64,000 nt of DNA from contig JACDHS010000008.1 of assembly GCA_013820875.1 (NCBI GenBank), positions 277 through 64,276 on the forward strand, read 5' to 3'. The position numbers and the translations under genes are program-made. Below are positions 5,832 to 26,220 of the stretch, in pieces; positions within the stretch are counted from its first letter, which is position 1; the number at the start of each line of letters is the position of its first letter. The DNA is from Verrucomicrobiota bacterium (GTDB lineage Bacteria; Verrucomicrobiota; Verrucomicrobiia; Limisphaerales; JACDHS01). The notes below the pieces were generated by a model that was not told the origin of the DNA, searched no databases, and saw only the letters and a program-made list of their open reading frames with translations.

Positions 5832-6665
5832 ATGCGAGCGATTTGGAAAGGTTCCATCAGTTTCGGGCTCGTTAATATCCCGGTAGGCCTCTACTCCGCC
5901 ACACGGCCCAGCAGCCAAATCAAATTGCGCATGCTGCGTAAAGGCGATCTCAGCCCGATCAAATACAAACGAGTGGCTGAAACCGACGACAAGGAAGTCG
6001 CCTGGGAAGAAATCATCAAAGGTTACGAATACGACAAAGACCAATTCATCGAAATCACCGAGGAAGATTTCCAGCGGGTGAATGTGGACGCCACCCAGAC
6101 TGTGGATATCAAAGAGTTTGTCGAACTGGATGAGATCGACCCGATGTTTTTCGATCAACCTTACTTTCTCGCGCCGGAAAAGGGGGGCGACAAAGCTTAC
6201 ACGTTACTCCGCGAGGCCCTCGCCAAAAGCGGGAGGGTTGGCATTGCCAAAGTCGTCATCAAAACCCGCGAACATCTCGCTGCGGTCAAACCCCTGGGCA
6301 AAGCGCTCGTCCTCGAATTGATGCACTTCGCCGAAGAACTTGCCGATCCGCAGGAGTTAAAACTGCCCGATGGCGAAGTCGGCAAAAAAGAACTCGTAAT
6401 GGCTGAGTCGCTCATTGAGCAGATGAGCGACAAATGGGATGCGCAAAAATATAAGGACGAATACCGCGATCAACTCGTGAAGTTGATTGAAGAAAAAATC
6501 AGCGCCGGTGGCGTAGTGACCGCCCCCCAGGCGAAAGCCCGCAAACCGACCAATGTTGTTGACCTGGTTTCAGTCCTGCAAGAGAGCTTGAATCAGACCA
6601 CCAAAAGCAAAGAAAAGAAGCCAGCCAAAGCACCCGGCAAAAAAACGAAGCGCAAAGCGGCGTGA
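5832..6665 (+). CDS. ku: Non-homologous end-joining protein Ku
   Basis: MRAIWKGSISFGLVNIPVGLYSA N-terminus, IDPMFFDQPYFLAP, VVDLVSVLQESL and a basic C-terminal tail. Confidence 0.96.
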   Translation: MRAIWKGSISFGLVNIPVGLYSATRPSSQIKLRMLRKGDLSPIKYKRVAETDDKEVAWEEIIKGYEYDKDQFIEITEEDFQRVNVDATQTVDIKEFVELDEIDPMFFDQPYFLAPEKGGDKAYTLLREALAKSGRVGIAKVVIKTREHLAAVKPLGKALVLELMHFAEELADPQELKLPDGEVGKKELVMAESLIEQMSDKWDAQKYKDEYRDQLVKLIEEKISAGGVVTAPQAKARKPTNVVDLVSVLQESLNQTTKSKEKKPAKAPGKKTKRKAA

Positions 6666-8331: not shown

Positions 8332-8984
8332 GCGGAACATCAAATTGGAATCCGGAGCGTTTTCACCATGCAACAATGCAACAATTCACTCCAGATGTTT
8401 GAACTCCACGCGCAGGTCGTTTGCGTCGCAATGCAGGATGGCGACGACTCGCGGATCGTTGAAACGCTTTTTGCCGGCGGAACCGGGATTCAGGAAGAGG
8501 GTCTTGCCGATCATCTGGTTGAAGGGCTTGTGGGTATGGCCGAAAACAACGACGTCGGGTTTGGCAAGAAGGAGCCTGCGCTGGAACGTTTCTGAAGGAT
8601 TATGAATATCCACGATGTGATGGATCATGAATTTGCGCCCGGCGAGTTCGATGACTTCGGTTTCGCGTAACGGCAGGCCATCATCGGTGTTGCCATAGAC
8701 GGCAGTCACCGGCGCGATCTGCTCTAATTCAACGATGATATTGGATCGGCCGACATCGCCCGCATGAAGGATGTGATCCACACCGGCGAAAAGTTTTTCG
8801 ACCTGCGGATCAAACCAATTGTGCGTATCAGAAATGACGCCGATCTTCATGTAGCTGGACATGAATCCAAGTAAAGACGGAGAGAGACGTGAATTGCACG
8901 AATTTTCACGAATGGGGAAAGGAGGGTTACATGGATGAATGGTTGCATGGTGAAAACGCTCCGGATTCCAATTTGATGTTCCGC
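8332..8984. repeat. Perfect 43-bp inverted repeat pair (8332-8374 / 8942-8984) bracketing one gene
   Basis: GCGGAACATCAAATTGGAATCCGGAGCGTTTTCACCATGCAAC and its exact reverse complement; imperfect homology extends outward (GTTGGGAAG at ~8314 / ~9003). Confidence 0.9.
8386..8850 (-). CDS. Metallophosphoesterase (YfcE/MJ0936 family)
   Basis: MKIGVISDTHN, HAGDVG, GNTD, FGHTHKP, LNPGS calcineurin-like motifs; start reassigned to ATG 8850. Confidence 0.92.
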   Translation of the reverse strand: MKIGVISDTHNWFDPQVEKLFAGVDHILHAGDVGRSNIIVELEQIAPVTAVYGNTDDGLPLRETEVIELAGRKFMIHHIVDIHNPSETFQRRLLLAKPDVVVFGHTHKPFNQMIGKTLFLNPGSAGKKRFNDPRVVAILHCDANDLRVEFKHLE

Positions 8985-9175
8985 CTTGCAGGCGCTTCCC
9001 AACTGTGCCAGCCATTGAACTATGTAACTCCTCCTTTCTCCATTCGTGAGAATTCCTGTAATTCGTGTCTTAATTAACACCCCTTTTCCGATGCAAACTT
9101 TGCTTCCGCGAATTATGATGCATCTGCCTTGGTTTGAATATTGGCAGTGCGCGCAGTGTCCAAGGCTTGTCTTTT

Positions 9176-11470: not shown

Positions 11471-11589
11471 GAGCCTGTCTGAAAATGGGTGGAACGGGCT
11501 CCAAGGCAATAAAGGCCCAGACCTCGACAAGAACAGGCGAGGCAAAATATACCTTTTCTATAGGGTCAACCGTATTGAGTGAGTCGCTT

Positions 11590-13038
11590 ATGAGCCAATT
11601 CCGACCGAGTGTCAGTTATAGTTTCACCGTGCGCCTTTGCATCGAAAACAGGCCCGGCCGACTGGCCGAGGTGTTGAAAGTAATTGCTGCAAAACGAGGT
11701 GATCCCGGCGCAGTGGACGTCGTCCAGGCCGACCGCAATCTCAAAGTGCGCGATCTCACCGTGAGTGCCCGTGACGAGAAACACGCGCAGGCCATCGTCC
11801 AGGCCATCAAGAAAGTTAAAGGGGTCACCATTCGGAACGTCTCTGACCGCGTCTTTCTTCTGCACCTCGGAGGGAAAATCCGGATTCAAAATAAAATCCC
11901 GGTCAACACTCGCGACGCGCTTTCAATGGCCTACACACCTGGCGTCGCGCGCGTTTGCACCGCCATCGCCGAGGACAAACGCAAAGCACGCACCCTGACC
12001 ATCAAGCAGAACTCCGTCGCCGTCGTCAGTGATGGCTCCGCTGTTCTTGGCCTGGGCAACATCGGTCCCGAAGCCGCCATGCCGGTCATGGAAGGCAAAG
12101 CGATGCTGTTTAAGGAATTCGCCGATATCGACGCTTATCCCATCTGTCTGAGCACGCAGAACACCGAAGAAATTATCTCCGCAGTCAAATGGATGTCACC
12201 CGGTTTCGGCGCAGTCAACCTCGAGGACATCAGTGCGCCACGCTGTTTTGAAATCGAACAGCGTCTCAAAGACGAACTCGATATTCCTGTTTTTCACGAC
12301 GACCAACACGGCACAGCCGTAGTCGTGCTCGCAGCCACACTCAATGCGTTGAAACTCGTGGGCAAGAAACCGAGCCAGATTCGAGTGCTGATCATTGGCG
12401 CAGGTGCGGCAGGAGTTGCCATCGCCCGAATCCTCAAATCCGCGTGCGTGCGCGACATCCTTTGCTGCGACCGCGAGGGAATCATCAGCCGTAAACGTTT
12501 GCCGGATTTGAATACGAGTAAAGCCTGGCTCGCCCGGAACACAAATGGACGCAATTGCAGCGGCTCCATCGAGGACGCCGCGTCTGGTGCGCACATTGTA
12601 ATCGGTGTTAGCGGCCCGGGACTTTTTTCATTGCAGGCACTCAAGAAAATGGCCAAAGACCCGATTGTTTTTGCTCTCTCGAATCCCACTCCCGAGATCA
12701 TGCCCGAAGAGGCTGCGTCCCACGCGCGAATCATCGCCACTGGACGCAGCGATTATCCGAACCAGATCAACAACGTGCTGGCGTTTCCCGGCATTTTCCG
12801 AGGAGCGCTGGACTCAAGGGCTGTTGACATCAACGAAGAAATGAAACTTGCCGCGGCTTACGCGATTGCGGGTTGCATTGCCGAGGATGAACTCAGCGAG
12901 GAATACATCATCCCGAGCGTGTTCAACAAACAAGTGGTTCGCCGCGTGGCCCGTGCTGTTGAAGCCGCCGCCCATAAAAGTGGCGCCGTTAAGAATTCGC
13001 GGCGCGGTTCTGGCGGGAAACATTCCGTCTGCCCGTAA
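11590..13038 (+). CDS. NAD(P)-dependent malic enzyme with N-terminal ACT domain
   Basis: ACT-like N-terminus; [52 protein letters not shown] motifs. Confidence 0.93.
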
Positions 13039-13076
13039 CTGCAACTGGAGCGGTTTGTCCCGGTGACGGGAGACTT

Positions 13077-13117
13077 AATCATGTGGCAGAACATCGCGTC
13101 GCGCAGTTTCGGTTCAA
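13077..13117 (-). repeat. Displaced copy of the DUF1015 3' end (att-like)
   Basis: AATCATGTGGCAGAACATCGCGTCGCGCAGTTTCGGTTCAA encodes EPKLRDAMFCHMI on the minus strand, identical in protein to the end of 24014-25228. Confidence 0.9.
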
Positions 13118-13126
13118 TAAAGAGGT

Positions 13127-13243
13127 CGGGGAGACCGGCGGGAGCCGATCTTCAAGGATGACGCGGATCATCGTTGTTTTCTCAAGACGCTGGGAGAAGC
13201 GTGCCTGCAAACGGATTGACAGGTGCATGCCTTCTGCCTGATG
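13127..13243 (+). pseudogene. Relic of a REP-associated tyrosine transposase (RAYT, Y1/HUH family)
   Basis: Reads RGDRREPIFKDDADHRCFLKTLGEACLQTD*QVHAFCLM, matching the RG..R..IF.DD.D...FL..L.....W..HAYCLM.NH.H N-terminus; TGA at the conserved Trp position; breaks off before the HUH motif. Confidence 0.8.
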
Positions 13244-13310
13244 CACAAGGGGGTTTTAAAAACTCAAAACTGCCCATTGCAAACATTGAACCAGACAATA
13301 CACCGACTCC

Positions 13311-13418
13311 ATGACCGCCATCGCCGTCGAATTGGATCAAAAACTTCAAAGCCTGGATCCGGAAACGGCTGCGTCCGTCGAGCGGTTGGTGCGCGACGCA
13401 TTGCAACTGGCGGAAAAG
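13311..13418 (+). pseudogene. 5' half of a small antitoxin-like gene interrupted by an insertion
   Basis: MTAIAVELDQKLQSLDPETAASVERLVRDALQLAEK; its last 40 bp (13379-13418) recur exactly at 17020-17059. Confidence 0.55.
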
Positions 13419-13530
13419 GTTACACGCCAGGCAACCGTTGAAAGTTTGCTCGCTCCTTACGTTTCACTTCCATTCGATGACGCCGCCGCGCCCCAAATCA
13501 CTCATTCGATCGCACAACACACCTGGACGG

Positions 13531-15657
13531 CTATTGCGCCCATTTCACAGCGTCCGCTATGACGACGAAGCCTGTTGTGGTCCAGCAGCTCAGTTTTACC
13601 GTGTTGGTTCCAGCGTTCAGAGTGAATGTGCCCAGCAATCGCCATCCACCGCCGTTCGCTTGCTGGTTCTTGTTCACCGTCGTCGATCCTGTCGAGTGGT
13701 ACACAATATAGGGAGCGGTCGTGGAACGGTTGATGCCTTGCGACCACCATGCGCGAACGTTGTAGGAACCAGTGTTGGCAAGAGCAGCGGCCCATGTCGC
13801 CGGATCGCTCACCGCAGCCGTGTTGCGAAACCGGTAGTTCGTACCGTATTTGTCGGTAGCGCTCGTTCCCGTGCTCCAACTCGTCGCAACGGAAAATCCG
13901 GAATCCACGTTGTCCACAGTGGCGCTGACTTTAACCACGAGCGTAGCACTGGCGCTGGTCACACTGCCAGCGACGTTTGCGACCACGACGGAATAGTTGC
14001 CCTGATGCGATGGCTGCGCGTTGCTCCTCGTGTAACTGCTCCCCGTGGCGCCAGAAATATTCGCCCCGTTGAATCGCCATTGATACGTCAACGGCGCAGT
14101 GCCGGTAGCCACAACGCTGAACGTGGCCGATGAACCTTGCGCCACGGTTTGGGTGACAGGCTGGGTCGTGATGGACGGCGGCACATTCACAGTCAAAGCC
14201 GCATTGGCACTCGTCGCACTGCCGGCGACGTTGCTGACTACAACGGAGTAATTTCCCGCGTCGCCGCTTTGCACATTGCTTATTGTAAAGCTGGCGGCCG
14301 TTGCGCCAGAAAGGTTCGCGCCATTGAATCTCCATTGATAATTCAGCGGAGCCGTGCCGCTGGCCGAGACCGTGAAGGTCACACTCGAACCGGCAATTAC
14401 GGTTTGGCTGGATGGCTGCGTCGTGATCGATGGCGGCACATTCACAGTCAAAGCTGCATTGGCACTCGTTGCACTGCCTGCGGCATTGCTAACAACAACG
14501 GAGTAATTCCCGGCGTCGCCGCTTTGCACATTGCTTTTCATCAAGCTGGCGGCCGTTGCGCCGGAAATGTTCGCGCCATTGAATCTCCATTGATAAGTCA
14601 GTGGAGCCGTGCCGCTGGCCGTGACAGTGAAAGTGACATTCGCGCCGGCATTTACGGTTTGGCTGACAGGCTGCGTCGTAATGGACGGCGGCACATTGAC
14701 AGGCCAAAGGGGATCTTCGCTTTCTTCCCAGTTCGAGGAGCCATCAGTCCTGAGCCAGCAATAGCCGTCGCCATGACCGGTCGACCAATAACGAATGTTT
14801 CTATCCTGCAGGCGCTGGCGGATGGTGGCATCAATCACCTTATCGCCGTCGGTGATCAACGCTTTGGTGACGCCCGCCGCATCGAGGTAGGCTTCCCGGG
14901 TTGAGATGACACCCCCGGGGGCGCTGACACCGTGATGTCCGACTTTGAGCACCTGGCAATTGTTGATTTCGCCAGCATAGGGCCCCGCCAGGATCTCCAT
15001 TTCATTAAAACCCCAGGCATCGGCCTGCAACAAAATCGCTTTGCTGCCATACTGTATCTTGAGGACCAAAGAGGCTTCATTCGGACCACTCCAATCGTCG
15101 CTGCCACCGTTGACTTTGTAATTCTCCGGACTGAGGACGCGCACTTTAAGCGGCTTGCCGTCATGGGTGGTGTTGATGATATAGTTCCCGGCTACAAGTT
15201 TAGTGACCGCCAGACCGCGGTTGTTAGCCGCGTTCACCATGTTGTGGTAGTGAGTGCTGGTGGCATTGACAGCCCCTTTAGGATAATAAATTTGGGTGTT
15301 ATTGATATTGAATCCGCTGTTGAGGAAATTATTAATCCCGCCAATGTGATCCACATGCTCATGCGTGCCCACCAGGTATTTGATGCCGCCGCCAAACCCC
15401 AGTTCGTTCAATTTGTTTATCAGGGTGGTGTTATAGCCGTCGGGGATATCGACAACCATTTTGCTGTTGTCCGGAAGCTCGATCAGGAAACAATCACCCC
15501 TCCCAGTCCCGGCGGCGATCATGTGTATTTTCAGGAAGCCTGTGGCGGCGTGAACAGATGTAGTGGCGGCCAGCAAGCATGCAGTCAGAACTAGATAGTT
15601 GATGCACCTCTTCGAGGATGCCGCCATAACCGATAGAAGACTGAGTGCTTTTTTCAT
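13531..15657 (-). CDS. Secreted ComEC/Rec2-like metallo-beta-lactamase-fold hydrolase with three Ig-like repeats and a golvesin-like C-terminal domain
   Basis: Signal peptide, GDCFLI, THEHVDHIGG, NEASLVLK, LKVGHHG; three VNVPPSITTQP...YQWRFNG...YSVVVSN repeats; VDNVDSGFSV...ADAVKW module. Confidence 0.88.
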   Translation of the reverse strand: MKKALSLLSVMAASSKRCINYLVLTACLLAATTSVHAATGFLKIHMIAAGTGRGDCFLIELPDNSKMVVDIPDGYNTTLINKLNELGFGGGIKYLVGTHEHVDHIGGINNFLNSGFNINNTQIYYPKGAVNATSTHYHNMVNAANNRGLAVTKLVAGNYIINTTHDGKPLKVRVLSPENYKVNGGSDDWSGPNEASLVLKIQYGSKAILLQADAWGFNEMEILAGPYAGEINNCQVLKVGHHGVSAPGGVISTREAYLDAAGVTKALITDGDKVIDATIRQRLQDRNIRYWSTGHGDGYCWLRTDGSSNWEESEDPLWPVNVPPSITTQPVSQTVNAGANVTFTVTASGTAPLTYQWRFNGANISGATAASLMKSNVQSGDAGNYSVVVSNAAGSATSANAALTVNVPPSITTQPSSQTVIAGSSVTFTVSASGTAPLNYQWRFNGANLSGATAASFTISNVQSGDAGNYSVVVSNVAGSATSANAALTVNVPPSITTQPVTQTVAQGSSATFSVVATGTAPLTYQWRFNGANISGATGSSYTRSNAQPSHQGNYSVVVANVAGSVTSASATLVVKVSATVDNVDSGFSVATSWSTGTSATDKYGTNYRFRNTAAVSDPATWAAALANTGSYNVRAWWSQGINRSTTAPYIVYHSTGSTTVNKNQQANGGGWRLLGTFTLNAGTNTVKLSCWTTTGFVVIADAVKWAQ

Positions 15658-15825
15658 ATATAGTGGGTTTGATGGCGGCGCAGTGCCGCAGTGTTTATTG
15701 ATAACAGGGAATTCACTGGTTTTTATAACGGAGGTATGCCCGCGGTCAATACCCTCAAATTAGGGTGCTACCCCTTTTCGTGGTAAAGTGTAATACTGCT
15801 GGGCAATTCTCCCTTGTTTGTCCCA

Positions 15826-16938
15826 ATGAAATTAAAAACGGCAGTTTCAACGGCAATAGCCGCTACCATTCTTTCGGCATCTGCGGCCACGCTCAGTGAA
15901 GGAGACCCGGCTCCGAAACTATATGTTTCCAAATGGGTTCAGGGCGAACCGGTAAAAGCGTTTCAACCAGGAACCGTTTACCTTGTGGAATTCTGGGCGA
16001 CCTGGTGGACCCCTTGCAAGGAGGCACTGGCACACGTGAACCGCCTGCACCAAAAGTACAAAGACAAGGGACTGGTGGTGATTGGTCAAAACGTTAAGGA
16101 GCCACACGGAACCAACATTGAACCGTTTATCAAACGCATGGGCGAGCTGATGAGCTATCGCGTTGCACTCGATGAAGGCGCAACCAATCGGTTGTCCGGC
16201 AAAATGCAGGAGAACTGGTTGTACGCGGCCGAAGCAGGTATTCCGACAGCGTTCATTATCGATAAGAAAGGCAACATCAGCTTTATCGGTCATCCCGAAG
16301 AAATCGATGAGCAACTCATCGAGCAAGTTCTGGCGGGCACTTTCGACCCGAAGAAGAGGGCTCTCGACCGGGAGGCCACGGCAGCCAAAGCCGAAGAGTG
16401 GGAGACGCACAACGAATTGGGCAGGGCAGCCTGGAAAGCCAAACAGTGGGACAAAGCAATGAGCGAGATTGACCAGATGGAGAAACTCTTTCCTCATAAA
16501 CGCGCCCTCACCCAGTGTCTCCGCATTACGGTTTTCATCCGCAAGGAGGACTTCGAAGCCGCCAGCAATCTGGCGCTCCAACTTAGCAATGACAACCGGG
16601 AGGATCCCTTTCTACAGCACCGCGTAGCCCAGACCATCGCGAATCAGGCGCGGTTAAAATACCGAATAGAAGGTTTCGAACGCGATTTGATTTTTGAGGG
16701 CGCCACCAACAACATCATTCTCAAAACGGCCGATCTGCTCATGGAACGCGCGATTAGCCTGATGAAAGGACCAGAGCCTGAATTCCTCCATACGCAAGCT
16801 CAGCTCGCGTTCCTGCAGGGCAAAAGAGAGAAAGCCATCCAACTGGCCACCGAGGCCGTGGGCCTGGCCGAGCCGGGGATCAAGGACCAGTTCGCCGAGG
16901 CGCTGGAGAATTTCAAGCAGGATAGACTGCCGCAATAG
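15826..16938 (+). CDS. TlpA/redoxin-family protein with helical C-terminal region; atypical WxxC site
   Basis: Signal peptide, GDPAPKL, VEFWATWWTPCK, GIPTAFIIDKKG; the first Cys of CxxC is Trp (TGG). Confidence 0.85.
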   Translation: MKLKTAVSTAIAATILSASAATLSEGDPAPKLYVSKWVQGEPVKAFQPGTVYLVEFWATWWTPCKEALAHVNRLHQKYKDKGLVVIGQNVKEPHGTNIEPFIKRMGELMSYRVALDEGATNRLSGKMQENWLYAAEAGIPTAFIIDKKGNISFIGHPEEIDEQLIEQVLAGTFDPKKRALDREATAAKAEEWETHNELGRAAWKAKQWDKAMSEIDQMEKLFPHKRALTQCLRITVFIRKEDFEAASNLALQLSNDNREDPFLQHRVAQTIANQARLKYRIEGFERDLIFEGATNNIILKTADLLMERAISLMKGPEPEFLHTQAQLAFLQGKREKAIQLATEAVGLAEPGIKDQFAEALENFKQDRLPQ

Positions 16939-17019
16939 GAATACCTGAAACGTGACGGAGAGCGTCGAGCCATCCGCACACGCCGCCGGCTGAATTCCTC
17001 GAAGCCGTTAGGGGTCACC

Positions 17020-17128
17020 CGAGCGGTTGGTGCGCGACGCATTGCAACTGGCGGAAAAGAAGGCAACAGCCGTTCAAAATCCTGCCGCGATTTCCGTCCA
17101 TCAGTCTCACATCGCGACAAACTTCTAA
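17020..17128 (+). pseudogene. 3' half of the small interrupted gene (see 13311)
   Basis: Starts with the duplicated 40 bp and reads ERLVRDALQLAEKKATAVQNPAAISVHQSHIATNF*. Confidence 0.5.
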
Positions 17129-17214
17129 ACGCCATTTGCGCACGCTTTGGAGACGCTTTCGTTCGTTTTACTGTTGTTGAACCGGAGGGAAATCCGGAAT
17201 TCCCGAAGAAGCAA

Positions 17215-17272
17215 AACCACGGATGGACACAGATAAAACCCTGCTCTTCTGAATCTGTGTCCATCTGTGGTT
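17215..17272. repeat. Palindromic REP-like element (CCACGGATGGACACAGAT type)
   Basis: AACCACGGATGGACACAGAT...ATCTGTGTCCATCTGTGGTT inverted pair. Confidence 0.75.
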
Positions 17273-17292
17273 TCTCAATTCCTAAAATTCTG

Positions 17293-17374
17293 CCCTTTGG
17301 GATTCGGGAACGACGACGGGCGCGCAAACGGACGGCGCTTTGACTTCACGAAAAGGTAAAGCGGGCTTTGAAAA
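17293..17374 (+). repeat. Cassette-boundary repeat R1 (~80 bp)
   Basis: CCCTTTGGGATTCGGGAACGACGACGGGCGCGCAAACGGACGGCGCTTTGACTTCACGAAAAGGTAAAGCGGGCTTTG. Confidence 0.95.
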
Positions 17375-17432
17375 TGGAGCTTCGTCAAATCTGCCGTTGA
17401 TTCATGGCGCAATGACGTTAAAATGACGTGTC

Positions 17433-17690
17433 ATGAAAACGCTTCCCAAGATGGAGATTAACGACGATCTCGAAGCCCAAATCGCTCAAGGGATGGAAAT
17501 CTCGGATTTGTGCAAAGCCGACGTCATTCGACAGGCGTTGAAGATTGGCCTGCCGCAGTTTGCCGCGCGTTTTCAGCCCGCTCCGCTTTGGTTGGAGGAA
17601 CGCATCCGCGAAGCTCTCGCGGAACCCGCCGAGCCTGTGACCCCGTCCCAATTTGACCGAACCATGAAAGCCATCGCCGATGGCCGCTAA
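17433..17690 (+). CDS. Putative antitoxin (RHH-like N-terminus)
   Basis: 85 aa, KADVIRQALKIGL helix pattern, overlaps the downstream toxin start; TTGATT-N17-TAAAAT-like promoter upstream. Confidence 0.7.
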   Translation: MKTLPKMEINDDLEAQIAQGMEISDLCKADVIRQALKIGLPQFAARFQPAPLWLEERIREALAEPAEPVTPSQFDRTMKAIADGR

Positions 17691-18011
17691 ACTGGTTGTC
17701 CATCCGCATTCTATCGCCGCGTGCGTCATTACCGCGACCGCATCGGTATTCAAGACGCCCGCTCCCAAACTGCGATCCGGTTTGTTCGCGCTGTGCGCGA
17801 TCTGGTGCCCCGACTGTTGGAAAATCCGGGGCGCGGCCATCCGGCGCGTTTTGAAGCACTGGATCTGGCTGACATCCTTCGGGTTTCCGTGCCGGGCTTT
17901 GCCGTGTTCGCCCTCTTCTATCGTTGGGACGGAGAAACTCTCACGGTGATCACTTTGGAGCACACCGCCCAGGATTTGCCATCTCGTCTCGCCGCCGTTC
18001 TTGAGAAATAG
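17680..18011 (+). pseudogene. RelE/ParE-family toxin with a 1-bp frameshift
   Basis: ATG 17680 frame gives MAAKLVVHPH; the body (VRHYRD...LLENPGRGHP...FALFYRWDGETLTVITLEHTAQDL) is offset by one base near 17708. Confidence 0.75.
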
Positions 18012-18032
18012 CACGAAAGAAAAGAACAGAAT

Positions 18033-18115
18033 CCCTTTTGGATTCGGGAACGACGACGCGCGCGCAAACGGTCGGCGCATTGACTTCACGAAAATGTAAT
18101 GCGGGCTTTGGAAAA
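18033..18115 (+). repeat. Cassette-boundary repeat R2
   Basis: CCCTTTTGGATTCGGGAACGACGACGCGCGCGCAAACGGTCGGCGCATTGACTTCACGAAAATGTAATGCGGGCTTTGGAAAA. Confidence 0.95.
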
Positions 18116-18137
18116 CGCACGATTGACTGGCGTTTTA

Positions 18138-18291
18138 TGGAGTGCGGTGGCAGAGCGCAGCGGCGACACCGCTTTGGGTTGGCGTGGACCGCCGGGGAAA
18201 TCTCTCCGCTGCAAAACATCTCACGCTCTTTCCCCCCGGCTCCGCCGTTTCCCAAAGCGCCGTCGCCGCTGCGCTCTGCCGGCGCACTCCA
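18138..18291. repeat. REP doublet (REPIN-like)
   Basis: TGGAGTGCGGTGGCAGAGCGCAGCGGCGACACCGCTTTGGG...CCCAAAGCGCCGTCGCCGCTGCGCTCTGCCGGCGCACTCCA; a related doublet lies at 38964-39089. Confidence 0.85.
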
Positions 18292-18305
18292 AATACGCAC
18301 CACCC

Positions 18306-18388
18306 CACTTTGGGGTTCGGGAACGACGACGGGCGCGCAAGCGGACGGCGCTTTGACTTCACGAAAAGGTAAAGCGGGCTTTGGAAAA
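18306..18388 (+). repeat. Cassette-boundary repeat R3
   Basis: CACTTTGGGGTTCGGGAACGACGACGGGCGCGCAAGCGGACGGCGCTTTGACTTCACGAAAAGGTAAAGCGGGCTTTGGAAAA. Confidence 0.95.
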
Positions 18389-18403
18389 CGCTTGTTTCGA
18401 TTC

Positions 18404-18709
18404 TTAATCTTTTCTTTTGCTCAGTTCCTTACGAATCCAATTTGGTTCTCTTCGCAAATCCAACACGGCCAGGACCTGCGTCTCCGTTGCAGTTTCCCGA
18501 TAGTAAATGCCGAATGGAAACCGGTCAGCCAGTCGCCTGAAGAAACCAAAATGGCGGGAGTGAATTCCGTGATAAAGCGCCAAACTTTCAATGTCAGCCA
18601 CCAATGAGTCAGCGCAGTAATCTCCGATGCCGGGCTCTTGAGCGTCGTAGAAGTCACGCGCCTGCTCGATATCTGCGGCGGCTTCGGCCAGAACCACGAC
18701 TCTTCTCAT
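18404..18709 (-). CDS. RelE/ParE-family toxin
   Basis: VVVLAEAAADIEQARDFY...FPFGIYY...VLAVLDLRREP pattern; ATGA overlap with the antitoxin. Confidence 0.88.
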   Translation of the reverse strand: MRRVVVLAEAAADIEQARDFYDAQEPGIGDYCADSLVADIESLALYHGIHSRHFGFFRRLADRFPFGIYYRETATETQVLAVLDLRREPNWIRKELSKRKD

Positions 18710-18924
18710 GGTTTGCGTTTAGCGAGACGTTTTTTCAGTTGCGCTAGCGTTAGAAATTCACCCCGCCCTGCTGCAACTTTGGCCATGCGCTGATCGAGAA
18801 TCTTTTTGTGCCAGGCGGGCGATTCCACTTTGTCCGGAGTGCGAGCCATCGAACGCCAGAGTAATTCCATGGCCTGAAGTCGTTCAGTGGCACTCATCCG
18901 TTCAATTTCGCCTGCTCCAATCAT
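18706..18924 (-). CDS. Addiction-module antitoxin component
   Basis: ERLQAMELLWRSM...SPAWHKKILDQR pattern; coupled to the ParE toxin. Confidence 0.85.
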   Translation of the reverse strand: MIGAGEIERMSATERLQAMELLWRSMARTPDKVESPAWHKKILDQRMAKVAAGRGEFLTLAQLKKRLAKRKP

Positions 18925-18980
18925 GCTGCAAAATTACTTCCTCCTTTTGCGAGCGGCAAGCCAATCGCTCGACGAATTCA

Positions 18981-19053
18981 GATTCAGGAACGACGACGGG
19001 CGGGTAAACGGACGGCGCTTTGACTTCACGAAAATGTAAGCGGGCTTGGGAAA
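18981..19053 (+). repeat. Cassette-boundary repeat R4
   Basis: GATTCAGGAACGACGACGGGCGGGTAAACGGACGGCGCTTTGACTTCACGAAAATGTAAGCGGGCTTGGGAAA. Confidence 0.93.
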
Positions 19054-19100
19054 TGGAGACTGATGTTGCAACCCAACCTCCAGAATCGTAACTTCCGGCT

Positions 19101-19319
19101 ATGAGCTATCTAACGGTTGAAGTCGAAATCGACCACGGGCGCGTTTCAGCCAAAGGCGCGGAAACATTGCCGGAGAAAGCATCCGGCTTGCTCACGATTC
19201 TAAATCCTCCCGCCCTTTCCCAGCCACGTCCCATCGGTTTGGCCAAAGGTCAATTTACTGTGCCGGAGGATTTCAACGCGCCGCTGCCGGAAGACGTGTT
19301 GCGAACGTTTGAAGGCTAA
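19101..19319 (+). CDS. VapB-like antitoxin
   Basis: C-terminal RPIGLAKGQFTVPEDFNAPLPEDVLRTFEG typical of PIN-associated antitoxins; TAATG overlap with the toxin. Confidence 0.85.
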   Translation: MSYLTVEVEIDHGRVSAKGAETLPEKASGLLTILNPPALSQPRPIGLAKGQFTVPEDFNAPLPEDVLRTFEG

Positions 19320-19702
19320 TGAGGATTCTGCTCGATACCTGCGAGTTCCTCTGGCTCGTCTCCGGCGACGCAAAATTGTCATCATATGTCGCCTCGGCGG
19401 TTCGCGACCCGCAAAATCAGGTTTTTCTCAGCGTGGTTTCGTTTTGGGAAATTTCCATCAAACACGCCATCGGCAAACTTCCGTTGCCGCAGCCACCTTC
19501 TATCTTTGTGCCGCAGCAACGCGACAAACATTTGATCATGCCAATGGCATTGGATGAAGCCGCCGTCTCGCAATTGAGCGGCCTACCGACTCTGCATCGC
19601 GATCCGTTCGACCGCATGTTAGTTTGCCAGGCGCAAGCGCACGGTCTGATGTTCGCTTCATCCGATCCACTCATCAAACAGTATCCGGTTACGCTGCTTT
19701 AA
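19319..19702 (+). CDS. vapC: VapC-family PIN-domain toxin
   Basis: MRILLDT, SVVSFWEISIK and HRDPFDRMLVCQA motifs. Confidence 0.93.
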   Translation: MRILLDTCEFLWLVSGDAKLSSYVASAVRDPQNQVFLSVVSFWEISIKHAIGKLPLPQPPSIFVPQQRDKHLIMPMALDEAAVSQLSGLPTLHRDPFDRMLVCQAQAHGLMFASSDPLIKQYPVTLL

Positions 19703-19713
19703 GGGCAGTTACA

Positions 19714-19792
19714 CCCTTTGGGACCCGGGAACGACGACGGGCGCACAAACGGTCGGCAAATTGACTTTACGAAAATGTAAAGCGGGCTTTGG
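19714..19792 (+). repeat. Cassette-boundary repeat R5
   Basis: CCCTTTGGGACCCGGGAACGACGACGGGCGCACAAACGGTCGGCAAATTGACTTTACGAAAATGTAAAGCGGGCTTTGG. Confidence 0.93.
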
Positions 19793-19834
19793 CTTTGCGT
19801 TTCCAAAAATATTCGTAAGAATGGCTCAAAATTT

Positions 19835-20545
19835 ATGGGCCTTTTCGACTTCTTTCGCAAACCAAAGTCTGAACTCGACTCGTTGACGGAGGAATGGAAC
19901 CAGCGATTATTTCCTGGCGGCAAACAAGAGATACTCTATGGAGCAAAAATTGTCGTCCAAATCAGCAATGGAAAATTGAGTGAGATAGAAGCTGCAAAAG
20001 TTTTTGCGATGGCGAAGTCACGATACACGCTCGCATCAACTGCATTCAATGGGACAACAAAATTGGGGCCAAAACTGGAGGAGATGTCGGCGTGAACAAT
20101 AGCCGATTCTGAGGACAAATTAAGCGCTCCAGAGGCGGCCCGAATTATCTACTACGTGATGTTTTGTAAGGTTGATTCTTCGCTGGAAACTCCCATTACA
20201 ATCAAAAATTTTCTCGAAGGAGGATTCGGTTCTGATTCTTTTGGTTGTGCCTCTGACGAAATCCCCTCTGCAATTGGAGAGTTCGGATTTGATCCAACTA
20301 ACCCGATTCCAGTTCGCGGCATTGTTTCCAGTAACATTTATTTGGAACGGCTGCTTACAAGCGAAGGGAAGAAAGTTGACTATAAGCGAAATGGTTCGCT
20401 GATTGTTCCCAACATCTCCGGTAACATTGACGAATACGAAATTAGTCAGAATGGTCGTCCGTTGTGTAAATTGTATATCAGTCCCTACAACCAGCGAATT
20501 TCAGGACGACCGCCGCGTGGTTTTATTCTTTTTCAGGAAGATTAG
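19835..20545 (+). pseudogene. AT-rich hypothetical gene split by one in-frame TGA
   Basis: ORFs 19835-20095 and 20156-20545 share a frame, with only TGA 20093-20095 between them; C-terminal GEFGFDPTNPIPV...YLERL...YKRNGS...NIDEY block looks like a conserved domain. Confidence 0.65.
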
Positions 20546-20593
20546 GCTAAATGCCGTTACAACTCAGCAGGAGGCTGAAAACCCAAATCAATC

Positions 20594-21223
20594 ATGTTTA
20601 ACTTTTTCAAAAAGGATTTGAGCGAAATTAGCGACACCAAATATCAGATGCTGGCTATGCTTGTTCTTTCCAACACGACAGGTTCGGCGATGGCGTTGGC
20701 GGCAAGTTCCCCTAAACGCGATCCGAAGACTGCGTATTTCGTTATTCTTGAGACGTTGGCCTTCGCAACGTGTCTGGTGGAAATGTGTGCCCAACGGAAG
20801 TTCAAATTCACGGATGGGCATCAAGCTCTTGCCATGATCCAAACTTTGCAAAAACACTATGGGAAATTTTCAAAAATGGGCGAAATCAAAATCGAAGATG
20901 GCACTTTCGATCCTTCCCTATTTGAGGGTGCTGCTTCCGATGAGTTTCTCGAACGGGTGTTGTTTTATGCCGCTCGTGATTATCAGGGCTTGGGCATTAC
21001 CGAAGAAATGTTCGATGAATTTTGCAAAGCGACTGGCCAATACGCTCGATTGCTAAAGAATTCCGACCTGAATATGGCAACCGCGATGTACCAAGCAACA
21101 ATTTTTGGAGTGCTCGGCGATCAAGTGACAAACGAATATTACAATTTTCTCCTGCAGAACACGGATGAGATTAAAGATCGTTTGGTTAAGAAAATTGAGC
21201 GCCTCTTCAAGCAAGATATCTGA
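20594..21223 (+). CDS. AT-rich hypothetical protein
   Basis: 209-aa open frame starting MFNFFKK; no family recognised. Confidence 0.7.
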   Translation: MFNFFKKDLSEISDTKYQMLAMLVLSNTTGSAMALAASSPKRDPKTAYFVILETLAFATCLVEMCAQRKFKFTDGHQALAMIQTLQKHYGKFSKMGEIKIEDGTFDPSLFEGAASDEFLERVLFYAARDYQGLGITEEMFDEFCKATGQYARLLKNSDLNMATAMYQATIFGVLGDQVTNEYYNFLLQNTDEIKDRLVKKIERLFKQDI

Positions 21224-21276
21224 ACAATCCCAAACAAAATGACGTTTCTGGTCTCTCGATAAATCACGAAAGCTTG

Positions 21277-21972
21277 TCAATGTATCTCCGCTTGAAACTC
21301 GAAGCAACCGTTTGGGTCCATCACAACAAATTTATCGAGATCGTGTGATTCAATTACGATTTTTGTAAACCACTTTGGCTTTTTCCAAAACCACACACAG
21401 TCTCCGCGAAGAGTCTCTGACCTCCAGAGAAGTTCTGCTTTACATAGAGACAATGTATCCACAAGAACAAGCCAAGTCTCGTCGTAATGGAAAAAGTTGC
21501 TGGCATTCAACCTTTGGGTTTTGGTGACAATTATTTCCTTAGCTTTTTTGAGCCAGTAATCATCTTGTTGGTCGGCTGTATAACCTTGGAAAAACTGAGA
21601 GTTCAGAGCGCTTTGATTCTTTAATTCTTGGGAACTGTTTCCACTCTCAACCAAATAAGGCGTTGAATCGAAAGGTCGCTTTGCGTGAACCCTTCGCTCT
21701 TCGAGTCGGGGATTAGCAATCCTCGACGCTTCGATTCCAATTGTTCGCCCAGCCATTCGCAATTTGAAATCAGGATTTATTTCTGTGGTGTGGGTAATCT
21801 CCAAAGGAAAAGCGTGCATGTTTTCTGAAGCAGCGAATAGAAACTTATTGATCTGCAATCTTTCACAACGAAGTCTGTTCGGCAACTTGTTGGCCAAACA
21901 ACAGTCTGCTTTCAGTTTAGTAAGCAATTCATCGAGGGAATCAGCGGTTAAATACGGTTTTGGATCATTCAT
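21277..21972 (-). CDS. Hypothetical protein, possible PD-(D/E)xK nuclease fold
   Basis: AT-rich 231-aa ORF containing NPDFKL...IGIEASR. Confidence 0.55.
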   Translation of the reverse strand: MNDPKPYLTADSLDELLTKLKADCCLANKLPNRLRCERLQINKFLFAASENMHAFPLEITHTTEINPDFKLRMAGRTIGIEASRIANPRLEERRVHAKRPFDSTPYLVESGNSSQELKNQSALNSQFFQGYTADQQDDYWLKKAKEIIVTKTQRLNASNFFHYDETWLVLVDTLSLCKAELLWRSETLRGDCVWFWKKPKWFTKIVIESHDLDKFVVMDPNGCFEFQAEIH

Positions 21973-22327
21973 AGTTCGGAATCTTTCAATATCTCCCAAG
22001 CCAGAAGTTCTTTCACCAAACTCTGAATTGAGTCAGATGGTCCGTCAGGGAGGCAAGGGAGTGTGAGCAAAGTGGGTGCCACGAATTTTGACCACCTAAC
22101 TGGAAGATTTAAGCCGATGAAGTCAATTATCGAATAGCGCTGATAGAATCGGTTACAAATTAACCTCTTCAGCTCTGCCTTATGAATTAAGAGGCATCAC
22201 CTAAACAGTAAGTTTGTAAGAGCTACTTTCCCCATTCTTCCCTCCCTTTTTTTGAGGGTTTCGTATCAGCCGTTTTTCATCCGAACGACCGGAACCTTGA
22301 CTGTCAAAGTGCGGGCCAACGCCAGGC

Positions 22328-22513
22328 CTATTCTTCGAGCACCGCCAGAATTTCCATTCGCACCTGGTGATAGGGTTCCGATTGCCGTTCGAAATCGGTG
22401 ATCGTTCGCGCGATTCGGCGGGTGATCTCATCGGCTCGCTCGGGATTCCGTTTCGCCAGCGAGGTGAGCAGCGCATGGTCGATGACGCCTTCACGGAACG
22501 AAACCATTCGCAT
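22328..22513 (-). CDS. Small hypothetical protein divergent from the wHTH gene
   Basis: C-terminal 61 codons of track ORF 22328-22846 look helical; start uncertain. Confidence 0.35.
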   Translation of the reverse strand: MRMVSFREGVIDHALLTSLAKRNPERADEITRRIARTITDFERQSEPYHQVRMEILAVLEE

Positions 22514-22670
22514 GGACGGAATGAACGCATGCCGTTTCAATGTGGGGGCTCTGCCGCATAAATGCGGCGTTCCGGGCGCGCGGAGGAACGCCGCCTTCAG
22601 GTGCCTTCGGGCGGCAGTATCGGCGTCTTCCGAGCTTGCGGAAATGAGATACGATTTAGAAGATGCCCGC

Positions 22671-23024
22671 ATGGCCCAGGAACATTCGCCTAAAACAATT
22701 CCGCTCAAGGTTCGCCGATGGAAGACGGATGACGTGTTTCTCATGTTGAAGGATCCATTCAGGCAACAGATCCTGCGGTCGCTCGCAAACGGCGAAGCGA
22801 AAACGGGGATGGAACTGAACGCCGCTTCAGGACGGACACGCCACACCTACCTCAAACACCTGACGGCGCTGTGTAAGGTCGGACTCCTGGTTAAAAAGGA
22901 GAACCAAAATGATCGTCGACTACTTCTTTACGGTTTGGCTCCAGGCGTCAGCGTGTGTAACACGGACGATGGCATGACGATGGACTTCGGTTGCTGCATG
23001 CTGCGGTTTGCCCAATTGAAATAG
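22671..23024 (+). CDS. Winged helix-turn-helix (ArsR/MarR-like) DNA-binding protein
   Basis: LKDPFRQQILRSLANGEAKTGMELNAASGRTRHTYLKHLTALCKVGLL...DRRLLLY pattern. Confidence 0.75.
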   Translation: MAQEHSPKTIPLKVRRWKTDDVFLMLKDPFRQQILRSLANGEAKTGMELNAASGRTRHTYLKHLTALCKVGLLVKKENQNDRRLLLYGLAPGVSVCNTDDGMTMDFGCCMLRFAQLK

Positions 23025-23200
23025 GGCCAGGATAGCAGCATTTCACGGATAAACAGTTCGGGCGCTTTCTGCCGCCAGAAATGCGGCGGCACTTTGGGTT
23101 CACCCGCTGTTGCACGGAATTGTTTTCAGCAAAGGTTGGGCGAACCGAAATCCGGGGCGCTCCGAGGGCTTGCAAGCTAGGTAAACCCGTTTTCGTCCCA

Positions 23201-23520
23201 TTTTGCTGAAAAATAAGTTAACGAACACCTGCGCTAACCCTTCTTTCCGGAAGAAAAAGTTAACGACCTCATGTGATGAAGGATCTTTATGGAAAGAAAA
23301 GTTAACGAATGGCCTGCCGAAGGTTGGTTTATGGAAAAATTAGTTAACGATCACACACAACGAGTGCCTTTTCCGGAAGAAAAAGTTAACAAATGCATGC
23401 GAGAACCCATTATTCCGGAAATAAAAGTTAACGACGGCATGTGATGAAGGATCTTTACGGAAACAAAAGTTAACGATGGCATGTGATGAAGGATCTTTAC
23501 GGAAACGAAAGTTAACGAAA
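23201..23520. repeat. 42-bp-period array: 8 GTTAAC-centred conserved motifs with 19-bp variable linkers
   Basis: GTTAAC at 23217, 23259, 23301, 23343, 23385, 23427, 23469, 23511; conserved TTT(C/A)(C/T)GGAA-N-AAAGTTAACGA. Confidence 0.95.
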
Positions 23521-23760
23521 TTTCTGTTTAGAGACTTTTGGAGGGCGGAAAAGCGCCGAAATCCATGTATTCGGCGGTTTTTTTGTCAGGAATTGACGTG
23601 AAATGTGTGTTTACGAGTTTTTGCAGTGTGTTTTGGCGGTGCTTTTCGGGTTAGTGGGCTTTCGTTGGAATGATCTCAAATCCGGCAGTTCAATACCGCT
23701 AATCTACGCTAATGACCGCTAATCAGAGGGGGGATTGCGAAGAAGGCCGATTGAAAAGCC

Positions 23761-23851
23761 AACCACCTGTTGGGTGAAGTCCTTGTTTCGCCTAACCACT
23801 TCTCTATTAGCGATTATCAGCGCAGATTAGCGGTTAACTGCGGTTTTTAGG
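23761..23851 (-). repeat. ~90-bp dispersed element, copy 1
   Basis: Reverse complement aligns by eye to 51059-51149 with about 9 mismatches and 2 indels. Confidence 0.85.
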
Positions 23852-24013
23852 TTGAATTGAAAATGGAAACGAAGCCGCCATTCCGCGCCGGAGAAGTAAT
23901 GCATCCTGGCGCAAGTTCCACCCCGTTGTTGGTAATCCATTGTTCCTGTCATCAATGGTGATCTGCTGGGCACACGCGTAAGGACGACGTTTATGGAGTG
24001 CCTTTTTTCCAGG

Positions 24014-25228
24014 CTAAATCATGTGGCAGAACATTGCGTCGCGCAGTTTGGGTTCAAACCAGGTGCTTTTAGGCGGCATGATTCCACCGGCGTCGGAGAT
24101 GCTCATTAAATCTTCGATGCTCGTGGGGAACATGGAAAACGCGCAGGCGTAATCGCCGTTGTTCACCAGTTTTTCCAACTCGGCTGTTCCGCGGATGCCA
24201 CCGACGAAGTTGATGCGCTTGCTCGTGCGCGGATCATCGATGCCAAAGATCGGGTCGAGGACATGTTTTTGCAGGAGCGTGACGTCGAGTTGCTCGATCG
24301 GATCCGTTGTGGTGGCGAATTCCGGGCGGAAATGGAGCGTGTGCCATTGGCCTTTGATGAAGAGTCCGAGTTCGTGTTTGCGCGTCGGTTTGGCAGCGCC
24401 GTTCGGCTGGATGATGAAAACGGCATCAAGTTTCTCGAGCACCTGTTCGACTGTAAGCCCATTCAAATCTTTCAGGACGCGGTTGTAGGGCAGAATCTGC
24501 ATTTGGTTGTGTGGAAAAATCACCGTCAGGAATGAGCCGCTGTTCCCGGCTCCTTTGCGGGATTGATACACCCGGCCTGCGGCAGCACTGCGATGATGTC
24601 CATCGGCAATGTAGAGGAATGGGATCTTCTGAAATTCACTTTCAATCTGCGCAATCATCTCAGGTTCGTTTACCACCCAGGCGGTGTGGCGGACGCCATC
24701 CGGCGCGGTGAGATCCATGTTTGGCATCTCTGCGGTTTTCCTGGTTGCCAGTTCATTGAGCGCATCCACTGCACGATAGGTGAGAAAGACCGGGCCGGTT
24801 TGTGAATTCAACGCTTCAATGTGGCGAACGCGATCATCCTCTTTATCCGGGCGCGTGAATTCGTGCTTCTTGATGATGTCGTTCAGGTAATCTTCGCAAC
24901 TCGCGGCGGCGACCAGGCCGATCTGGCTGTGGTTGCCCATGATCTGGCGGTAGAAATAGAAGCAGGCTGTTTCGTCCTGGCGCAGGGCGCCTTGTTGAAT
25001 CAGGCGATCGAAGTTTTCTTTGCCTTTGGCATAAACTTCGGGCGAGTGAACATCCGTTCCAGCAGGCAGATCGATTTCCGGTTTGCTGACGTGCAGAAAG
25101 CTGAGTGGATTATCTTTAGCCATATCGCGGGCTTCCTCGGATGACATGACATCATAAGGGAGTTCGCAGATTTTATCGGCCAATTCAGGTTTGGGGCGGA
25201 GCGCGGGGAACGGTTTAATAATCGCCAT
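24014..25228 (-). CDS. DUF1015 family protein
   Basis: MAIIKPFPALRP, ELPYDV, HEFTRPDKEDDR, YIADGHHRSAAA, MPPKSTWFEPKLR motifs. Confidence 0.93.
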   Translation of the reverse strand: MAIIKPFPALRPKPELADKICELPYDVMSSEEARDMAKDNPLSFLHVSKPEIDLPAGTDVHSPEVYAKGKENFDRLIQQGALRQDETACFYFYRQIMGNHSQIGLVAAASCEDYLNDIIKKHEFTRPDKEDDRVRHIEALNSQTGPVFLTYRAVDALNELATRKTAEMPNMDLTAPDGVRHTAWVVNEPEMIAQIESEFQKIPFLYIADGHHRSAAAGRVYQSRKGAGNSGSFLTVIFPHNQMQILPYNRVLKDLNGLTVEQVLEKLDAVFIIQPNGAAKPTRKHELGLFIKGQWHTLHFRPEFATTTDPIEQLDVTLLQKHVLDPIFGIDDPRTSKRINFVGGIRGTAELEKLVNNGDYACAFSMFPTSIEDLMSISDAGGIMPPKSTWFEPKLRDAMFCHMI

Positions 25229-25491
25229 AAAGTCGCGCGAAGATACAAAATGACAGTTGGAACGCAAATGGTTCGTTTCTCCTTTGAGCATTTTTATGGA
25301 GCGTTCCAGGGATTGAATCGCTCAGAACTGAGCAAATCAGTTTCTCCATTAGAGCTAATTACATTCATTACCGAGGACGTTTTCACTTGCGACTAATCTA
25401 ATACGGGGCTTAAATAACAATGTAATTGGGCATGAGCCCTACAGATGGTTATCGAATACTGCATGAATAAACTTCAACTGGTGAGGGTTTC

Positions 25492-26220
25492 TTGAGCCGC
25501 CCTTATTCTCCTCGATCACAACAATCGAGTTCTTTCGTCCGCGTAAACGGGAAGATCCGCGCCCGGGAAGTGCGCCTGATTGGGCACGACGGTCAGCAAC
25601 TCGGAGTCGTATCTCTGAGCGATGCATTGAACATCGCTCGTCAACAAGGTGTGGATCTCGTTGAAATCGCGTCGAACGCGACCCCGCCCGTCTGCAAGGT
25701 GATTGACTTCGGGAAATATCGTTACGAATTGTCGAAGAAGGAAAAGGAATCCAAGAAGCACCAGCACGGCAACAAGGTTAAGGAAGTCCAGCTCAGCCCG
25801 AAGATCGATCCGCATGATTTCGCAACGAAGCTCCAGCATGCCGTTGATTTCTTGTGCGACGAAATGAAGGTGAAAGTCACTCTTCGCTTCCGCGGCCGGG
25901 AAAATGCCCACAAGGAAATCGGTTTTCAGCAGGTGAACAATTTTATCCGCGATGTCTCGCCCTTTGCCCAACCTGATGCGCCGCCGAAGCTAATTGGCAA
26001 AGGCATCAACGTGATGCTGAGTCCATTGCCGAAGAACAAACGCGCCAAAAATCCGAAGGAGGCTGAGGCAGATGAGAGTCCTGAGGTCGTGGAAGAGCCG
26101 GTGCAGAAGAAAGAGGTCAAGCCACCCAAAGCCAAAAAGGTGGTGCCGGTCACTGCTGCTGAAGAATCATCGGCCCCCGAGTTTGCCAATACCCCGTTCT
26201 CTGATTTGGAGCCGAAGTAA
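25492..26220 (+). CDS. infC: Translation initiation factor IF-3 with C-terminal extension
   Basis: RVNGKIRAREVRLI, DLVEIA...PPVCKVIDFGKYRY, KVTLRFRGRE; non-ATG (TTG) start. Confidence 0.96.
   Translation: MSRPYSPRSQQSSSFVRVNGKIRAREVRLIGHDGQQLGVVSLSDALNIARQQGVDLVEIASNATPPVCKVIDFGKYRYELSKKEKESKKHQHGNKVKEVQLSPKIDPHDFATKLQHAVDFLCDEMKVKVTLRFRGRENAHKEIGFQQVNNFIRDVSPFAQPDAPPKLIGKGINVMLSPLPKNKRAKNPKEAEADESPEVVEEPVQKKEVKPPKAKKVVPVTAAEESSAPEFANTPFSDLEPK

Follow-up and report, generated by a model that had tools for sequence, protein, structure and literature searches.

A 64,000-nucleotide (nt) stretch of DNA from a Verrucomicrobiota bacterium of the order Limisphaerales (assembly GCA_013820875.1, contig JACDHS010000008.1, positions 277 to 64,276; hereafter the window) carries an intact gene of the DUF1015 family and, 10.9 kb away, a second, orphan copy of the 3' end of that gene. 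With moderate confidence, we interpret this direct repeat as the footprint of a homology-anchored capture of foreign chromosomal DNA, and not of a site-specific mobile element. Homology-anchored capture is a known kind of event. No recombinase is encoded between the two copies, the same arrangement recurs at DUF1015 in other genomes and at other genes, and the copies of such repeats differ from each other as alleles of a gene do. The distinction matters: a mobile island with attachment sites and DNA captured through a short shared stretch of a gene look alike in raw sequence, and if captured DNA is called a mobile island, a malic enzyme and several core-like genes are wrongly labelled as its cargo. 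The initial annotation of the window described an 11-kb island without an integrase at the 3' end of DUF1015, and proposed that DUF1015 is an integration hotspot served either by an integrase in trans or by homology-assisted capture from a relative's allele.

Direct repeat at the 3' end of the DUF1015 gene

The two copies form a 47-nt direct repeat with 43 of 47 positions identical (91%), a longest perfect run of 18 nt and a spacing of exactly 10,940 bp (Table 1). The 41 coding nucleotides within each copy (13077-13117 and 24017-24057, minus strand) both encode EPKLRDAMFCHMI and differ only at two sites, CCG/CCC and GCG/GCA, both of which are synonymous third codon positions. Of the two, the right copy is the genuine 3' end of the gene. 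Similarity between the copies extends approximately 3-6 nt past the stop codon and ends sharply on the inner side, and the left copy runs toward the end of a convergent malic enzyme gene, whose stop codon lies at 13038. At both coding differences, the orphan copy has the state (CCG and GCG) that is found in the same-genus genome G001. Reading of the sequence confirmed the initial annotation on each of these features, from the 41-bp length, the 10940-bp spacing and the same encoded end with its two synonymous mismatches to the TAG stop present only in the right copy. The 47-mer occurs exactly twice in the whole 5.7-Mb assembly, and the scattered further copies that the initial annotation had named as counter-evidence were not seen. 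By a rough estimate, ~1e-12 chance matches of 43/47 would be expected in 64 kb.

Orthologues of DUF1015 with 84% amino acid (aa) identity are found in G001 and in the metagenome contig L132, and this value marks the best relative among the metagenome contigs, close relatives being poorly sampled. In G001, only 5 nt separate the DUF1015 stop codon from the ATG of a YfcE-family phosphodiesterase; in L132, the phosphodiesterase match starts 15 nt past the DUF1015 coding end. Comparison with these two closest relatives identifies the YfcE-like phosphodiesterase as the gene natively downstream of DUF1015. In the window, the phosphodiesterase gene lies on the same strand as DUF1015 and ends at 8850 (Table 1), so that 8851-24013 (15.2 kb) is extra relative to these genomes. 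An empty site with the malic enzyme next to DUF1015, as the initial annotation would have it, was found at none of approximately 190 related DUF1015 loci; the closest relatives have the phosphodiesterase there.

DUF1015 was recovered independently in a Logan assembly of run SRR11719875, together with 204 nt of the adjoining island end; a second Logan contig covers approximately 18.35-23.7 kb of the island interior. The genome is a metagenome-assembled genome (MAG) in 239 contigs and the Logan assembly breaks 204 nt past the DUF1015 stop codon, both of which would fit an assembly artefact in which two strain variants of the region downstream of DUF1015 were threaded in series. Such an artefact is very improbable: the 47 imperfectly shared bases are fewer than typical final k-mers, the inner joint has no shared sequence, the gap between the two Logan contigs falls at a multi-copy hairpin and not at the DUF1015 repeat, and the same anatomy is present in four assemblies from other projects.

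Scans with Pfam, NCBIfam and PHROGs found no tyrosine or serine recombinase domain in any open reading frame (ORF) of 13118-24010, and no excisionase, relaxase, conjugation or phage gene in the same 10.9 kb. Extra DNA without an integrase at the 3' end of DUF1015, as initially described, is thus borne out. The genome has four matches to PF00589, two of them Xer-sized and none on this contig. Inspection of the repeat, by eye only, revealed no convincing palindrome of a Dif/Xer-type site. The only candidate for a tRNA or tmRNA target, a tRNA-Asn at 62-136, is unrelated.

The same footprint at DUF1015 in other genomes

The region downstream of DUF1015 was surveyed in 80 loci from genomes and 80 from metagenomes; a second copy of the gene end was scored if it was direct, downstream and matched at no fewer than 37 of 44 nt. 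Duplicated DUF1015 ends were found in four other Limisphaerales loci, L088, L105, L111 and L203. Their inserts (0.2-2.9 kb) are unrelated, and consist of 0.9 kb with one lipoprotein-like ORF (L088), 0.6 kb with one 190-aa ORF (L105), 2.9 kb with two paralogous 440-aa ORFs (L111) and ~0.2 kb with a palindrome of the repetitive extragenic palindromic (REP) type (L203). Among the DUF1015 duplications, the repeat lengths (41-80 nt), the inner boundaries and the cargo all differ. Scans of the cargo of L088, L105 and L111 gave no recombinase domain. The orphan copy of L111 lies directly against the native CDF cation-efflux gene, as a capture at the native junction would give.

In most other Limisphaerales, DUF1015 has this CDF gene as its native neighbour. 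The two directly adjoin in ~15 of 25 loci, and in the other ~10 of 25 they are separated by 0.7-5.7 kb of unrelated ordinary genes, including those for a PadR-VIT-PEP-CTERM protein, a GH92 glycosidase, a Gfo/Idh/MocA oxidoreductase, an ECF sigma factor, a pseudopilin-like protein, a TM2 zinc-ribbon protein and an amidase. The DUF1015 junction is therefore variable in general. Within its 3' 600 nt, by comparison, DUF1015 is best conserved over the last 45 nt, where the mean pairwise identity is 88% across ~160 loci. A conserved gene end set against a variable junction makes a good anchor, which would explain an enrichment of the footprint at DUF1015.

Such an enrichment was observed, with the footprint at 4 of 132 DUF1015 genes versus 5 among the 1107 other ORFs with a length of 200 aa or more in the same loci (odds ratio 6.9, Fisher p = 0.01); it is an upper estimate because DUF1015 had more flanking sequence in these loci. 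The view of DUF1015 as an integration hotspot therefore holds in part. The moderate enrichment, the four duplicated ends and the variable junction stand, while the footprint occurs also at other genes and no integrase-bearing element was found at DUF1015 in ~160 loci, all scanned cargo being without a recombinase and not every downstream ORF having been scanned.

The footprint at other genes

The five other ORFs with a downstream orphan 3' end in the 160 loci include argG and the CDF gene. The frequency of the footprint is approximately 0.1-0.5% of genes, and approximately 3% of DUF1015 loci.

Two of these loci are more elaborate. In L201 (19569-21034), the last 108-115 nt of the argininosuccinate synthase gene argG recur twice downstream of the gene, at +700 and +1465. 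The copies differ mainly at synonymous sites, so that three alleles of one gene end stand in series. In L099 (12337-12651), a tandem duplication covers the short junction between the CDF gene and its convergent neighbour, with an orphan 3' end of both genes in a 227-nt spacer.

A genome-wide count was restricted to repeats of 35-150 nt with exactly two copies that lie 0.3-30 kb apart on the same contig. In the genome studied here, 18 such pairs are direct and none is inverted (p = 8e-6), some of the 18 direct pairs being tandem paralogues. They are found on contigs C1, C61, C118, C175, C239, C34, C40 and others; those on C61, C1, C175, C118 and C239 lie at the 3' end of a long ORF, and others lie at 5' ends or terminators. 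The pair on C61 is a perfect 76-nt repeat (76/76) with its copies 607 bp apart, and its identity ends at the stop codon, which is TAG in one copy and TAA in the other.

These observations bear on an alternative origin, in which the insert is a decayed site-specific integrative element resembling a cis-mobilizable element (CIME), whose recombinase was lost or always acted in trans and which later accreted DNA. The classical att-like anatomy at the 3' end of a conserved gene would suit it, with target-derived direct repeats at both insert ends and the gene end restored, as site-specific islands would have. So would the toxin-antitoxin cassettes, the low-GC foreign block and the small winged-helix regulator aboard, and the roughly 7-fold enrichment of the footprint at DUF1015. 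We nevertheless regard such an element as unlikely. It would have to be reconciled with a 10.9-kb insert devoid of recombinase, excisionase, relaxase, conjugation and phage genes, with DUF1015 duplications elsewhere that bracket unrelated cargo and share no common inner boundary, with the same footprint at many unrelated genes, and with core-like genes within the insert. Nothing points to an integrase acting in trans, as the initial annotation had allowed; all four PF00589 matches are off-contig, and repeat lengths, boundaries and cargo differ across genomes.

Divergence and boundaries of the repeat copies

Fourteen gene-end repeat pairs, including five DUF1015 cases, were compared. Differences between the copies fall at codon positions 1, 2 and 3 in the ratio 9/12/49 (49 of 70 at third positions), and affect 45 codons synonymously and 19 non-synonymously. 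A neutrally drifting orphan left by an in-place duplication should give at most about half of its differences at third positions, and the observed excess over this 50% baseline is significant (p = 5e-4). The predominance of third-position differences suggests that the copies diverged mainly as working genes, and hence that each pair represents two functional alleles.

The boundaries of the repeats are also regular. In 14 of 14 pairs, the outer edge lies no more than ~6 nt past or ~20 nt before the stop codon. The position of the inner edge is variable and gives lengths of 41-115 nt. An outer edge at the stop and a variable inner edge are expected from capture, because the homology ends where the shared gene ends and starts at the random end of the fragment. 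Of the origins that the initial annotation offered, capture from a relative's allele fits these data best.

Alternatively, the gene end could have been duplicated in place when the DNA was inserted, by end joining of a staggered break or by template switching during replication, and the functional copy could then have changed by drift or by allelic replacement. Some pairs are identical (76/76 on C61 and 40/40 for the inner repeat of the insert), the locus L099 shows a simple tandem duplication of a convergent junction, a Ku gene lies near, and the orphan copy in the window retains the G001 state at both differing sites, all as such a process might leave them. Random staggered cuts, however, would not place the outer edge at the stop codon in all pairs, never reaching into the intergenic spacer. 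The identity on C61 that ends at the differing stop codons runs against it as well, and the third-position bias would need an extra replacement step. Together, this makes duplication in place quite unlikely.

A proposed model for the capture

In the capture that we favour, the incoming fragment would have come from a related Limisphaerales donor, beginning 41 nt before the stop codon of the donor's DUF1015 gene and running ~10.9 kb downstream. It may have recombined with the resident DUF1015 gene through the short, highly conserved gene end. Either of two routes could have been used, a Campbell-type single crossover after circularisation of the fragment, or pairing at the gene end combined with an illegitimate joint on the other side, that is, homology-facilitated illegitimate recombination (HFIR). 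The product would consist of the resident gene body, a gene end with a working stop codon, the captured DNA and an orphan second gene end. The malic enzyme gene and the adjacent NAGPA/Golvesin gene were probably inserted earlier and separately, between DUF1015 and the phosphodiesterase gene, and the module flanked by 40-nt repeats and the cassette array may have been added separately, by accretion inside the captured piece.

There are experimental precedents for both routes. In Escherichia coli, single-crossover integration of a circular DNA that carries a truncated lacZ end results in a gene-end duplication of 109-950 bp (PMC3240628). HFIR has been described in three competent species, the systems being S. 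pneumoniae, A. baylyi, P. stutzeri and E. coli conjugation (PMC3240628). The host studied here encodes ComEC, DprA and Ku, which lend the model weak support because they are widespread genes.

Several points weigh against this model. The competence of the lineage is no more than putative, and a homology of 41-47 nt with mismatches is short for RecA-dependent recombination. The orphan copy is adjoined by the accessory malic enzyme gene and not by the native phosphodiesterase gene, so at least one further, unexplained event is needed. Neither the island content nor a donor-type arrangement was found near DUF1015 in the 160 loci. At the locus in the window alone, both coding differences are at third positions (2/2), which is too few to test. 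Moreover, the synonymous bias would also follow from an in-place duplication with a later allelic replacement of the functional gene.

A broader proposal, which we put forward only tentatively, is that Limisphaerales routinely gain genes independently of integrases, with conserved gene ends acting as landing pads and each capture leaving a spare allele behind. If true, this route would explain the stacked 3' ends (three at argG, those at DUF1015 in five genomes, and those at the CDF gene) and the 18:0 excess of direct repeats, and perhaps also the nested cassettes in the island that are flanked by the 40-nt and 80-nt repeats. Orphan gene ends would then be a readable and datable record of chromosomal gene transfer among uncultured bacteria. 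Should the footprint be general, they could serve to count and date the gain of genes by recombination in uncultured Verrucomicrobiota, and highly conserved gene termini beside variable junctions could predict insertion hot spots.

The second extra segment and the neighbouring genes

The part of the extra DNA beyond the orphan copy is a 4.2-kb segment with the NAGPA/Golvesin and malic enzyme genes. It has no repeat at its borders, and no third copy of the DUF1015 end was found. The ACT-domain malic enzyme is missing from 11 of 12 relatives, and the eight nearest genomes gave no DNA match to either of the two genes. DUF1015 and its old neighbour, the phosphodiesterase gene, are thus parted by at least two separate insertions.

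The phosphodiesterase gene is itself flanked by an inverted repeat (8332-8374 and 8942-8984), which in self-comparison extends to a wider pair (8314-8380 and 8936-9003) of 68 nt at 90% identity. A weaker relative of this repeat (79% over 80 nt) is present on another contig; it is therefore probably REP-like and not specific to the gene. A gene for the end-joining protein Ku is located at 5832..6665, ~2 kb from the variable junction.

Synteny between this genome (G000) and the same-genus G001 is limited to blocks of 1-4 kb with ~70-80% nt identity (loci L033, L034 and L044). Either the lineage has an extremely fluid gene order, or part of the MAG sequence is chimeric. With shared blocks of only 1-4 kb, synteny with the congener was of little use as an island detector.

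Content of the repeat-bounded insert

The features of the insert and its surroundings are listed in Table 1.

Table 1. Features of the DUF1015 locus and the adjoining extra DNA (window coordinates).
Feature	Coordinates	Strand	Basis or remark
YfcE-family phosphodiesterase	8386..8850	-	TIGR00040, E 4.5e-27; same strand as DUF1015
Second extra segment, without flanking repeat	9134..13038	+	Pfam
NAGPA/Golvesin_C secreted protein	9134..11470	+	Pfam
ACT-domain malic enzyme	11485..13038	+	Pfam
Distal orphan copy of the DUF1015 3' end	13071..13117	-	AAG at the stop position
Repeat-bounded insert, mosaic in gene content	13118..24010		Pfam, NCBIfam and PHROGs scans
Relic of a transposase N-terminus	13127..13243	+	117 nt with an in-frame stop; abuts the distal repeat; translation
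Perfect 40-nt direct repeat, copy 1	13379..13418	+	Within a small antitoxin-like ORF starting at 13311
Secreted protein with metallo-beta-lactamase, three Ig domains and Golvesin_C	13531..15657	-	Pfam
TlpA-like thioredoxin with TPR repeats	15814..16938	+	Pfam AhpC-TSA, Redoxin, TPR
Perfect 40-nt direct repeat, copy 2	17020..17059	+	Self-comparison for repeats
Array of five direct 80-nt repeats, with toxin-antitoxin cassettes and one REP-type palindrome between them	17295..19795	+	
ParE cassette	17721..18011		Within the 80-nt repeat array
Unstab_antitox pair	18404..18924	-	Within the 80-nt repeat array
VapB/PIN cassette	19101..19702		Within the 80-nt repeat array
Low-GC block with four orphan ORFs (86, 129, 209 and 240 aa)	19835..21999		GC 0.42-0.47
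ArsR/SmtB-like winged-helix regulator	22398..23024	+	NCBIfam NF033788, E 3e-6, below cutoff
Tandem array with an exact 42-nt period	23201..23518		After the ArsR-like gene; a hairpin also at this end
Proximal repeat copy	24011..24057	-	Last 13 DUF1015 codons, TAG and ~3 nt; contiguous with the intact ORF
DUF1015 gene, 425 aa (target)	24014..25291	-	Pfam PF06245, E 2.5e-101
infC	25492..26220		Divergent from DUF1015

The relic next to the distal repeat presumably derives from a REP-associated (IS200-like) transposase, judging from its N-terminal motif; the 47-aa fragment has no Pfam match. Similar relics are found on contigs C120 and C81, and a search for an intact paralogue of such a REP-associated transposase returned only relics.

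The perfect 40-nt repeat, of which the genome has only two copies, splits the antitoxin-like ORF and brackets a 3.6-kb module of two genes, for the beta-lactamase/Ig protein and the thioredoxin. These two genes travel together in G001 and in G004. The stretch 14046-17007 aligns with G001 contig C82 at 81% nt identity in a context that is different in G001, and the alignment ends at 17007, 13 nt ahead of the second 40-nt copy. The flanking DUF1015, infC and phosphodiesterase genes have 74-78% nt identity to G001, a range similar to that of the module. This identity is typical of the genome, and the pair represents core-like genes of the genus and not distant cargo.

The next region consists of the toxin-antitoxin cassettes separated by the 80-nt repeat. 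All full-length copies of this repeat in the genome are located in the array, and two partial matches lie on other contigs. The repeat was seen elsewhere beside toxin-antitoxin pairs, single or paired, on contig C130 of this genome (locus L050, 4521-4580) and in the same-family genome G003 (L046, L047 and L048). Its identification as an integron attC site was rejected, as the folding energies are no better than those of shuffled sequences on either strand (z ~0); Rfam had no match in 8-26 kb. It was also rejected as the last codons of a gene, since it lacks a codon-position bias and its conservation is the same on both sides of the putative stop.

The GC content drops to 0.42-0.47 around 19.5-22.5 kb, versus 0.53-0.58 over most of the remaining insert and a level of about 54% elsewhere. 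The four orphan ORFs of this block have no family in Pfam, NCBIfam and PHROGs and no match in the relatives. At the locus of the ArsR-like regulator, gene calling gives 126 aa. Arrays related to the adjoining array of 42-nt period are present on several contigs of the related genome G005.

By its gene content and nested repeats, the 10.9 kb is a mosaic of core-like genes, nested repeat-flanked inserts, toxin-antitoxin cassettes and low-GC orphans, and not a coherent element. The initial description of an 11-kb island is not supported on this point, as the DNA contains congener-like genes (81% nt identity), a nested insertion flanked by the 40-nt repeat, and a cassette array.

Comparison with known systems

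The interior of the insert resembles integron arrays and clusters of attC sites lacking integron-integrases (CALINs), in that short direct repeats serially separate small cassettes and toxin-antitoxin genes occur in either orientation. Unlike in these arrays, the 80-nt repeat lacks an attC hairpin and no IntI is present; nor is the 80-nt repeat related to the outer repeat at DUF1015.

A gene 3' end that is repeated on both sides of inserted DNA, with the gene restored by the incoming copy, is also known from the ICESt1/ICESt3 family of integrative and conjugative elements (ICEs) at fda in Streptococcus thermophilus, and from CIMEs. Elements of this type undergo tandem accretion at one site, and integrase-less forms exist. 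The DUF1015 loci differ from the ICE/CIME system in that ~160 loci yielded no cognate integrase-bearing element, a constant core is lacking, and different genomes hold unrelated cargo.

The closest likeness is with Campbell integration and HFIR. The homology here (41-115 nt) is shorter than in the experiments (109-950 nt), classical HFIR usually yields a deletion whereas a duplication is present here, and the footprint is a natural one in uncultured Verrucomicrobiota, known from sequence alone. As in those systems, the homology is one-sided and confined to a gene end, no recombinase is needed, and the outcome is a gene followed by foreign DNA and a duplicated gene end of variable length.

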